A stretch of DNA of 794 nt from Escherichia coli (lineage in GTDB: Bacteria; Pseudomonadota; Gammaproteobacteria; Enterobacterales; Enterobacteriaceae): assembly GCF_003334765.1 (NCBI RefSeq), contig NZ_QOWT01000098.1, one strand, 5' to 3'. Position 1 is the stretch's first letter; each line of letters begins with the position of its first letter. The position numbers and the translations under genes were made by a program. The notes beneath the pieces are model-generated. The model did not search any database. It was not told the origin of the DNA and saw nothing but the letters and a program-made list of their open reading frames with translations. This document shows positions 1-794 of this stretch, one piece after another.

Positions 1-79
1 ATGACTCATGATGAACCCTGTTCCATGGCTCCAGATGACAAACATGATCTCATATCAGGGACTTGTTCGCACCTTCCCT

Positions 80-118
80 AAAATAAACATTGCTTCATAT
101 GTTCAACTATGCGTTAAT
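80..118 (+). promoter_or_regulatory. Predicted sigma70 promoter of the csp gene: A-rich UP-like element (80..89, AAAATAAACA), -35 TTGCTT (90..95), 17-bp spacer, -10 GTTAAT (113..118); predicted TSS about 125..127
   Basis: Hexamers read directly from the sequence with canonical 17-bp spacing. The layout (AT-rich UP tract abutting a TTGCxT -35 and a cTTAAT-like -10) resembles the cspA promoter as I remember it. The predicted TSS sits immediately upstream of the cold-box-like element. Not experimentally mapped. Confidence 0.45.
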
Positions 119-126
119 GATTGCGT

Positions 127-143
127 CGGTTTGAAGAACAGAC
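127..143 (+). promoter_or_regulatory. Cold-box-like element at the 5' end of the leader (CGGTTTGAAGAACAGAC)
   Basis: Sequence CGGTTTGAAGAACAGAC closely resembles the cspA leader start (recalled as CGGTTTGACGTACAGAC), differing only in a central trinucleotide. In cspA this region is implicated in transcription attenuation and autoregulation. Comparison is from memory, not alignment. Confidence 0.5.
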
Positions 144-256
144 GATATACGAAGTAGTTTACTAAAGCAGTTCTCATTTCAGGTGTTATTCACTTATTCC
201 TTCTTTGAGTCTCTCCAATTAAGTACGAAGTCGTTTCTGTTATGCAAACCATTTAT

Positions 257-269
257 GCCGAAAGGCTCA
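257..269 (+). promoter_or_regulatory. Upstream box GCCGAAAGGCTCA, conserved cspA-family leader element; can form a GCC/GGC stem with a GAAA (GNRA) tetraloop
   Basis: Exact GCCGAAAGGC at 257..266, followed by TCA. The cspA, cspB, cspG and cspI leaders share a 13-nt upstream box (GCCGAAAGGCACA in cspA) just 5' of the SD that enhances translation. The short self-complementarity is visible directly. Confidence 0.6.
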
Positions 270-273
270 AGTT

Positions 274-278
274 AAGGA
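274..278 (+). promoter_or_regulatory. Shine-Dalgarno / RBS for the csp CDS (AAGGA), 7-nt spacer to ATG 286
   Basis: AAGGA at 274..278 within TAAGGAAT, optimally spaced to the start codon. Confidence 0.8.
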
Positions 279-285
279 ATGTAGA

Positions 286-501
286 ATGTCAAATAAAATG
301 ACTGGTTTAGTAAAATGGTTTAACGCTGATAAAGGTTTCGGCTTTATTTCTCCTGTTGATGGTAGTAAAGATGTGTTTGTGCATTTTTCTGCGATTCAGA
401 ATGATAATTATCGAACCTTATTTGAAGGTCAAAAGGTTACCTTCTCTATAGAGAGTGGTGCTAAAGGTCCTGCAGCAGCAAATGTCATCATTACTGATTA
501 A
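286..501 (+). CDS. cspB: Cold-shock protein, CspA family (CspB-like), 71 aa, complete ORF with stop TAA at 499..501
   Basis: ORF-track translation [71 protein letters not shown] has the cold-shock domain hallmarks: RNP1-like KGFGFI and RNP2-like VFVHF motifs, and the MSxKMTG(I/L)VKWFN N-terminus. The 71-aa length and the N-terminal MSNKMTGL match E. coli CspB as I recall it, not the 70-aa CspA, CspG or CspI. Start ATG 286 is preceded by SD AAGGA (274..278) with a 7-nt spacer. Paralog identity was not verified by search. Confidence 0.9.
298..312 (+). promoter_or_regulatory. Downstream-box-like motif ATGACTGGTTTAGTA within codons 5-9 of the csp CDS
   Basis: Matches the cspA downstream box (recalled as ATGACTGGTATCGTA) at 12 of 15 positions. 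The element is reported to enhance translation at low temperature, but the proposed base-pairing with 16S rRNA is disputed. It may simply reflect conserved codons for KMTGLV. Confidence 0.35.
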
Positions 502-612
502 AATTCATCGCTCGTCTGTATACGATAACGAAGAAGGCTGATGCCTGAGTAGAGATACGGACAGAGTAGTGAATATTGGATCTCTTTAATAAAAAGTAAG
601 GAGGTCCAATAC

Positions 613-648
613 ATGAAACAATGGCTAGCATATTTGGCAAAATCTTAA
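613..648 (+). CDS. Hypothetical 11-codon small ORF (MKQWLAYLAKS) preceded by a perfect 9-nt Shine-Dalgarno TAAGGAGGT (597..605) with a 7-nt spacer
   Basis: SD TAAGGAGGT is a full complement of the 16S rRNA 3' end and is ideally spaced to ATG 613; the ORF ends at TAA 646..648. No homology is recognised. The call rests only on the exceptional RBS, so it could be a leader peptide, a small protein, or coincidence. Confidence 0.2.
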   Translation: MKQWLAYLAKS

Positions 649-794
649 TCAGGAAAAGTATGCTAACCATTGTGGTGAAGTGCAGGTTTGCTGCATGAAT
701 AGTTTTACAGCAGAAGCTAAGGAAGGTGCGAATAAGCGGGGAAATACTTCTCGGCTGACTCAGTCATTTCATTTCTTCATGTTTGAGCCGATTT

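Follow-up and report, generated by a model that had tools for sequence, protein, structure and literature searches.

In Stx phages, the slot between the antitermination gene Q and the holin gene is occupied by stx together with the tRNA genes ileZ-argN-argO, and a low content of guanine plus cytosine (GC) in phage cargo genes is a textbook pattern. For the cold-shock genes cspA and cspB, control by the leader after transcription is known from the literature. In Escherichia coli K-12, cspB has the table entry 'Qin prophage; cold shock inducible' (PMC4924334), and its cold induction is also documented in PMC12360218; leaders of the cspA type refold in the cold, and at 37°C permit Rho binding and repression (PMC12360218). 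The insertion sequence IS5 has Py-T-A-Pu, often CTAA, as its target, and AT-rich, easily melted DNA is favored (PMC5493358). Here we describe a 794-nt stretch of E. coli DNA (contig NZ_QOWT01000098.1), referred to below as the window, that combines elements of all these systems. The window very probably represents 643 bp from the moron region of a lambdoid prophage of the Qin type, containing cspB and delimited by two in situ insertions of IS5.

The cspB segment, its Qin counterpart and the IS5 borders

Positions 78-720 of the window (643 bp, the core) are 100% identical to the Qin cspB locus of K-12 MG1655, as found by megablast against 5,426 complete E. coli genomes; in the K-12 locus (L001; further L numbers denote other loci used in the comparison) the core corresponds to 12001-12643. 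The coding sequence (CDS) of cspB, located at 286-501 on the plus strand, encodes a cold-shock-domain protein of 71 aa and is the sole convincing entry in the list of open reading frames (ORFs) of the window. Its DNA is 100% identical to K-12 cspB (b1557), its product is the RefSeq CspB protein WP_000066484.1, and PF00313 (CSD) is recorded for exactly this 71-aa sequence. What the window shares with b1557 in identical form comprises the putative promoter, the leader of 161 nt, the CDS, and 219 bp of the 3' region. Beyond the core, where the window has IS5 ends, K-12 reads into cspF to the left and into a terminator and then ynfU to the right.

The gene order in K-12 is ydfU, ydfT/quuQ (antitermination protein Q), a ynfS-family ORF, cspF (minus strand), cspB (plus strand) and ynfU (minus strand), followed by essD (holin), ydfR, rrrQ (lysozyme), rzpQ, and cspI. 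This confirms the location that the initial annotation had given for K-12 cspB, namely in Qin, near cspF, between the late antiterminator and the lysis genes; the Q, holin, endolysin, and Rz genes that it proposed to look for around cspB are indeed present in K-12 and in phages Tritos and 2H10. At least 80% of the window is contained in 1,604 complete genomes (approximately 30% of the 5,426; approximately 70% are without the locus), and at least 80% of the 3.7-kb stretch from Q to lysozyme in 1,603. For exactly this CspB protein, ten non-redundant public contexts were compared, with holin and lysozyme genes downstream in all ten and Q upstream in nine. The 643-bp core was also found in six phage records with 97-100% identity, phages Tritos and 2H10 having the order Q, (cspF), cspB, holin, endolysin, spanin, cspI. 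The placement between Q and holin was retained in every relative examined; in the copy described here, the DNA beyond the core is IS5.

The left border of the core is formed by the last 77 bp of an IS5 (positions 1-77, minus strand), that is, the end bearing the start of the transposase gene insH, and the right border by the first 74 bp of an IS5 (721-794, minus strand), the end distal to the insH start. With the annotated 1,195-bp IS5 of strain Z226-5 (L002 12590-13784) as the comparison, the left end is 100% identical to L002 13708-13784, while the right end shows 97.3% identity to L002 12590-12663 and 98.6% to the corresponding IS5 end in L003. The terminal repeat GGAAGGTGCGAATAAG occupies 721-736; this 16-bp repeat, GGAAGGTGCGAA(T/C)AAG, recurs as its reverse complement at approximately 62-77. 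The ATG codon of insH is the reverse complement of positions 7-9, and only the first three codons (9-1, minus strand) are inside the window; the annotated start of the L002 insH CDS corresponds to window position 9. Both ends share one orientation, and the 643-bp cspB segment is bracketed between them. Each junction coincides with a CTAA target: identity to uninterrupted K-12 begins exactly at the left one (78-81) and stops exactly at the right one (717-720), each of these CTAA sites occurs once in uninterrupted K-12, and the K-12 sequence is unrelated to window 1-77. The outer ends of both IS5 copies, and with them the second copy of each 4-bp target duplication, would be outside the window. 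The core contains 14 Py-T-A-Pu sites. The outer edges of the window, overlooked in the initial annotation, are therefore IS5 ends and not the late-region flank that had been proposed, and calling the outer ~75 bp 'phage non-coding DNA' would be a misreading.

The left junction lies approximately 47 bp upstream of the predicted cspB start and would leave the putative -35 and -10 elements and the proximal AT-rich stretch intact; the right junction lies 219 bp past the stop codon of cspB. Insertions of this kind have been described near the promoters of glpFK, bglGFB, fucAO, and flhDC, where IS5 likewise uses a CTAA target in AT-rich promoter-proximal DNA (PMC5493358), and the distance of the left copy is within the range at which IS5 can change the expression of a gene (PMC11894529, PMC2753651). 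Unlike in those cases, the left copy has its transposase-start end toward cspB, and that end reads in the direction away from the gene. In other strains, IS5 has hit the same stretch independently: the left CTAA is also the site of an oppositely oriented IS5 in strain ES4 (L003 10819-12019), and in Z226-5 an IS5 is located at the CTAA equivalent to window 663-666. The AT-rich stretch from Q to holin is thus a recurrent landing site of IS5, and the repeated hits are in keeping with the preference of IS5 for AT-rich, meltable DNA. Strain E16EC0562 has a gene annotated as 'IS5 family transposase' directly after Q (L013 7133-8101), which gave no match to the IS5 ends of the window.

Several records of the locus in relatives deserve separate mention. 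Two records suggested a plasmid location, E. coli pE16EC0562-2 (19.7 kb) and Klebsiella oxytoca unnamed9 (9.5 kb, linear); both show a 100% match to the core and the gene order of Qin, and this location was rejected, the two being Qin fragments. Many protein accessions of the K. oxytoca record (NZ_CP069920.1, L012) are common to the late region of E. coli Qin, and the record gives the impression of contamination or of a misassigned contig, not of a Klebsiella plasmid. Phage PHB10 (L011 3501-4661) carries a diverged trio of cspF-like, csp and ynfU-like genes with 66-75% identity, flanked by an integrase plus SOS-peptidase gene on one side and by umuDC on the other; this different neighborhood suggests a small csp cassette moving as a unit. 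Finally, in GCA_052907965.1 (L021 1991-3499) a group II intron reverse transcriptase and non-phage genes are found upstream of cspB, in the position usually occupied by Q and cspF; this locus is a truncated Qin remnant.

Base composition and the slot between Q and holin

The window contains 303 G+C among its 794 bases (38.16% GC), which exactly reproduces the earlier hand count (about 38%); the GC content of the E. coli genome is 51%. By segment, GC amounts to 38.6% in 1-285, 35.2% in the cspB CDS (286-501), and 39.9% in 502-794. The Qin-derived core has 36.4% GC, whereas the two IS5 ends together (1-77 and 721-794) have 45.7% and so raise the mean of the window slightly. The AT-rich codons noted in the initial annotation are borne out as well: GC at third codon positions (GC3) of the cspB CDS is 23.9%, compared with 45-56% in the core paralogs. 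These paralogs, taken from the same K-12 record as a control of composition, have GC and GC3 values of 48.4 and 55.7% (cspA), 43.8 and 44.9% (cspE), and 46.7 and 49.3% (cspC). As cspB GC3 is far below these values, its AT-rich codon use is real and is not a family trait. We also observed that in NZ_CP032667.1, the RefSeq record of MG1655, cspA and cspC are mislabelled 'cspE' (L006 5113-5325 and L008 4162-4371).

Within Qin, low GC is confined to patches. cspB has 35% GC, the intergenic DNA 36-37%, ynfU 40%, ynfQ 34%, and ydfK 36%, cspF being an exception with 48%, and the backbone genes ydfU, Q, and rrrQ have 52, 48, and 51%. The low-GC patches are the cargo cassettes cspF-cspB-ynfU, cspI-ynfQ-gnsB-ydfO, and ydfK-ynfT. 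AT-richness is therefore a flag of swappable cargo and not of the prophage as such; its proposed use as a sign of prophage DNA holds for the cargo cassettes and fails for the backbone genes, whose GC is host-like.

The extent of the swappable region is seen in the prophages of PEC41 and E2855, in which Q is 89-90% identical to Q of K-12 Qin. From Q onward they are homologous to K-12 as far as exactly L001 11403; the homology starts again at 13152-13183, directly ahead of the holin gene. These limits place the swappable cargo region of K-12 at approximately L001 11404-13151, with the window core in the middle. In its place PEC41 carries a hypothetical gene and tRNA-Ile/Lys/Thr/Gly genes, and E2855 carries tRNA-Ile/Arg/Arg genes and a SASA esterase gene, the latter layout (tRNAs plus SASA esterase) being known from Stx-type phages. 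The identity of the Qin locus and the presence of other genes in the same slot of related prophages bear out, for this sequence family, the proposal that the csp gene is phage cargo. No stx gene was found in any of the loci examined, and no tRNA genes in the window. The locus resembles other morons located between Q and holin, such as stx in Stx phages, in the slot that it occupies in relatives, in what is probably a promoter of its own, and in a composition unlike that of the backbone. Unlike stx, the cargo here consists of small cold-shock-type genes, and two of the genes, cspF and ynfU, are on the strand opposite to late transcription.

The initial annotation had further suggested late-region signals in the non-coding DNA of the window. 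That DNA is instead the promoter, leader, and 3' region of cspB, and late-region signals inside the window were rejected, as the candidates for pR' and tR' adjoin Q. Directly after Q, a GC-rich hairpin at L001 11380-11403 scans as an intrinsic terminator; it marks the exact point at which the homology with PEC41 and E2855 stops, is located approximately 600 bp to the left of the K-12 equivalent of the window, and is probably the late terminator tR'. With a promoter-like site at L001 11305-11334 it likely forms, as judged from the sequence, the pR'/tR' pair, outside the window. In the window itself, a scan for consensus elements found a single promoter-like site, located within the CDS on the minus strand, which is below the number expected by chance. 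The scan also found three terminator-like sites: one lies within the CDS, another within IS5, and a weak one at 680-696. Two very similar GC-rich hairpins (AAACCCGC...GCGGGTTT), at L001 11380-11403 and 12706-12725, bracket the ynfS-cspF/cspB cargo in K-12.

Putative promoter, leader and 3' region of cspB

The 5' untranslated region (UTR) of cspB, at 125-285 on the plus strand, is a cold-shock thermoregulator leader of the cspA type. The Rfam family RF01766 (cspA thermoregulator) matches window 125-517 over the full length of the model (1-428) with 158.8 bits and E = 2e-43, the gathering score of the family being 78. Since model position 1 aligns to window position 125, the 5' end of the mRNA would be at approximately 125, giving a leader of 161 nt. 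Its elements include a cold-box-like UGAAGAACAGA at 132-142, the conserved GCCGAAAGGC at 257-266, and the Shine-Dalgarno sequence AAGGA at 274-278. The family's conserved 5' hairpin and cold-box region, its GCCGAAAGGC box, and the pairings within the coding region all align; unlike in the family, the alignment shows a deletion of the 3' terminator portion of the cspA model, the 3' region of cspB is instead long and structured, and the K-12 cspB terminator is located approximately 200 nt further downstream. The 5' UTR also contains a 13-nt direct repeat, TACGAAGTAGTTT at 148-160 and TACGAAGTCGTTT at 224-236, 76 nt apart.

A leader start at 125 implies a promoter of cspB's own. We place this putative promoter at 82-124 on the plus strand, relying on the start of the RF01766 match and on the layout of the cspA promoter. 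Most likely it consists, by analogy, of a -35 element TTGCTT at 90-95, a 17-bp spacer and a -10 element of the form TGc-GTTAAT at 110-118 (GTTAAT at 113-118), with a predicted transcription start at approximately 125-126. An AT-rich stretch (78-89) is located upstream of the putative -35 element.

The proximal 3' region of cspB (502-720, plus strand) has no annotated gene and contains a run of hairpins at approximately 503-574, 574-611, 618-673, 680-696, and 699-719. The fold of 495-720 has an energy of -75.3 kcal/mol on the plus strand (z = -6.8 versus shuffles) and -52.7 kcal/mol on the minus strand (z = -4.25), and the inverted repeats I1 and I3 are located in this region; no Rfam family was found on 495-720. 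Across 1,638 genomes the region is single-copy, linked to cspB in every case, and without annotation. Only two haplotypes of it were found, that of CFT073 and 2H10 differing at 10 positions: four paired positions retain pairing via G-U, five are unpaired, and one pair is broken. These substitutions are compatible with an RNA structure on the plus strand and may be taken as suggestive of it, the sample being too small as proof. Covariation in the hairpins was not significant, as about half of random transitions would keep pairing anyway. An 11-codon ORF at 613-648 (MKQWLAYLAKS), starting 7 nt after a perfect TAAGGAGGT (598-648 region), is probably no gene, because TAAGGAGGT is the 3' arm of the hairpin at 574-611 and all three CFT073/2H10 substitutions in the ORF are nonsynonymous. 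In K-12, cspB and the convergent ynfU share a strong bidirectional terminator at L001 12706-12725. This is equivalent to approximately window 783-802, that is, 62 bp beyond the right IS5 junction, and so it is absent from the window and cspB is separated from it. The hairpin array at 502-720 could be an RNA element serving as a stabilizer of cspB mRNA, as a processing platform, or as an insulator from Q-modified late transcription.

Alternative explanations and implications

Several observations weigh against the assignment of the window to a Qin-type prophage with two simple IS5 insertions. Neither IS5 junction was found in this form among the 5,426 complete E. coli genomes or in PLSDB plasmids, where the best coverage of the window was at most 84%; nor were the junctions found in phage records, GTDB representatives, viral contigs, or JGI metagenome contigs (the exact-match scans comprised genome, viral, and metagenome contigs for the left junction, and genome and metagenome contigs for the right one). 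The phage genes are outside the window, the neighbors visible for this copy being IS5, so that its own phage context is not readable from the window. The consensus promoter scan of the window did not flag the hexamers proposed for cspB. GC content by itself is weak evidence of foreign origin, being low and not extreme: in a sample of approximately 25 kb of core K-12 DNA surrounding cspA, cspE, and cspC, 794-bp windows had a mean GC of 48.2% with a standard deviation of 5.5%, and 4.8% of them were equally AT-rich (38.2% GC or less). The window might also be a short-read contig that ends k bases into a repeat, an artefact of the assembler, although the IS5 overhangs of 77 and 74 bp do not fit a single k once the shared CTAA is counted.

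That roughly one core window in twenty reaches this GC might suggest ordinary chromosomal DNA, AT-rich by chance and with no link to mobile elements. Such a reading has practically no probability, as the genomic contexts refute it: all of those examined are lambdoid prophages or phages, the locus is missing from some 70% of complete genomes, and both ends of the window are IS5. It is also highly improbable that the AT-richness reflects constraints on a cold-shock gene (an AT-rich UP element, a leader that refolds with temperature, weak mRNA structure that permits translation in the cold) instead of foreign origin. The non-coding DNA of the window does include a regulatory leader, and the 300 bp upstream of core cspA are AT-rich too (40.3% GC); yet GC3 is 24% in cspB versus 56% in cspA, a gene of the same function and with the same type of leader, the unrelated neighboring cargo is as AT-rich (ynfU 40%, ynfQ 34%, ydfK 36%), and only about 30% of complete genomes contain the locus, always in a prophage.

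A different history would make IS5-cspB-IS5 a compound transposon, or an amplified or excised unit, that carried cspB with its leader out of the prophage to a chromosomal site, a plasmid, or a tandem array. An IS5 end borders the segment on its left and an IS5 start on its right, both copies pointing the same way, and the absence of both junctions from the collections searched marks the arrangement as unusual. Against this, both CTAA sites are ordinary single-copy positions of Qin, as expected of simple insertions, single IS5 insertions recur independently within intact Qin contexts, no copy elsewhere was found in the collections searched, and the segment is without obvious selectable cargo; we consider this history quite unlikely. 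Taken more broadly, that the bracketed segment is a mobile or amplifiable unit taking a self-contained cold-inducible gene (promoter, thermosensor leader, and CDS) away from its prophage or, separately, that the hairpins at 502-720 are an uncharacterized functional RNA element, is unlikely.

Two simple in situ insertions of IS5 into a Qin-type prophage are the most likely history of the window. In relatives, a cassette of ynfS-cspF, cspB, and ynfU is located between the late terminator after Q and the holin gene, its low GC (36%, versus 48-52% in the flanking backbone genes) being typical of such cargo. Transcription of cspB would start at a promoter of its own and not depend on late transcription of the phage, and the cspA-type leader would control the gene post-transcriptionally. 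Two IS5 copies of the same orientation presumably landed at CTAA targets on either side of cspB, and would sever it from cspF on one side and from the K-12 terminator and ynfU on the other; transcripts of cspB may then run into the right IS5, antisense to insH. We infer that Qin persists beyond the IS5 copies in the source strain, and that cspB is still functional, using its own promoter, and cold-induced.

It is standard knowledge from databases that cspB is located in Qin, with Q and the lysis genes on its two sides; in this respect the finding is correct, ordinary, and already known. Its value is mainly in correct annotation, namely the recognition of the IS5 edges, of AT-rich cargo rather than an AT-rich prophage as a whole, and of a recurrent IS5 insertion site. 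If the IS5 pair did alter the expression of cspB, or mobilized the gene, this would be a small addition to the literature on 'adaptive insertion' of IS5.

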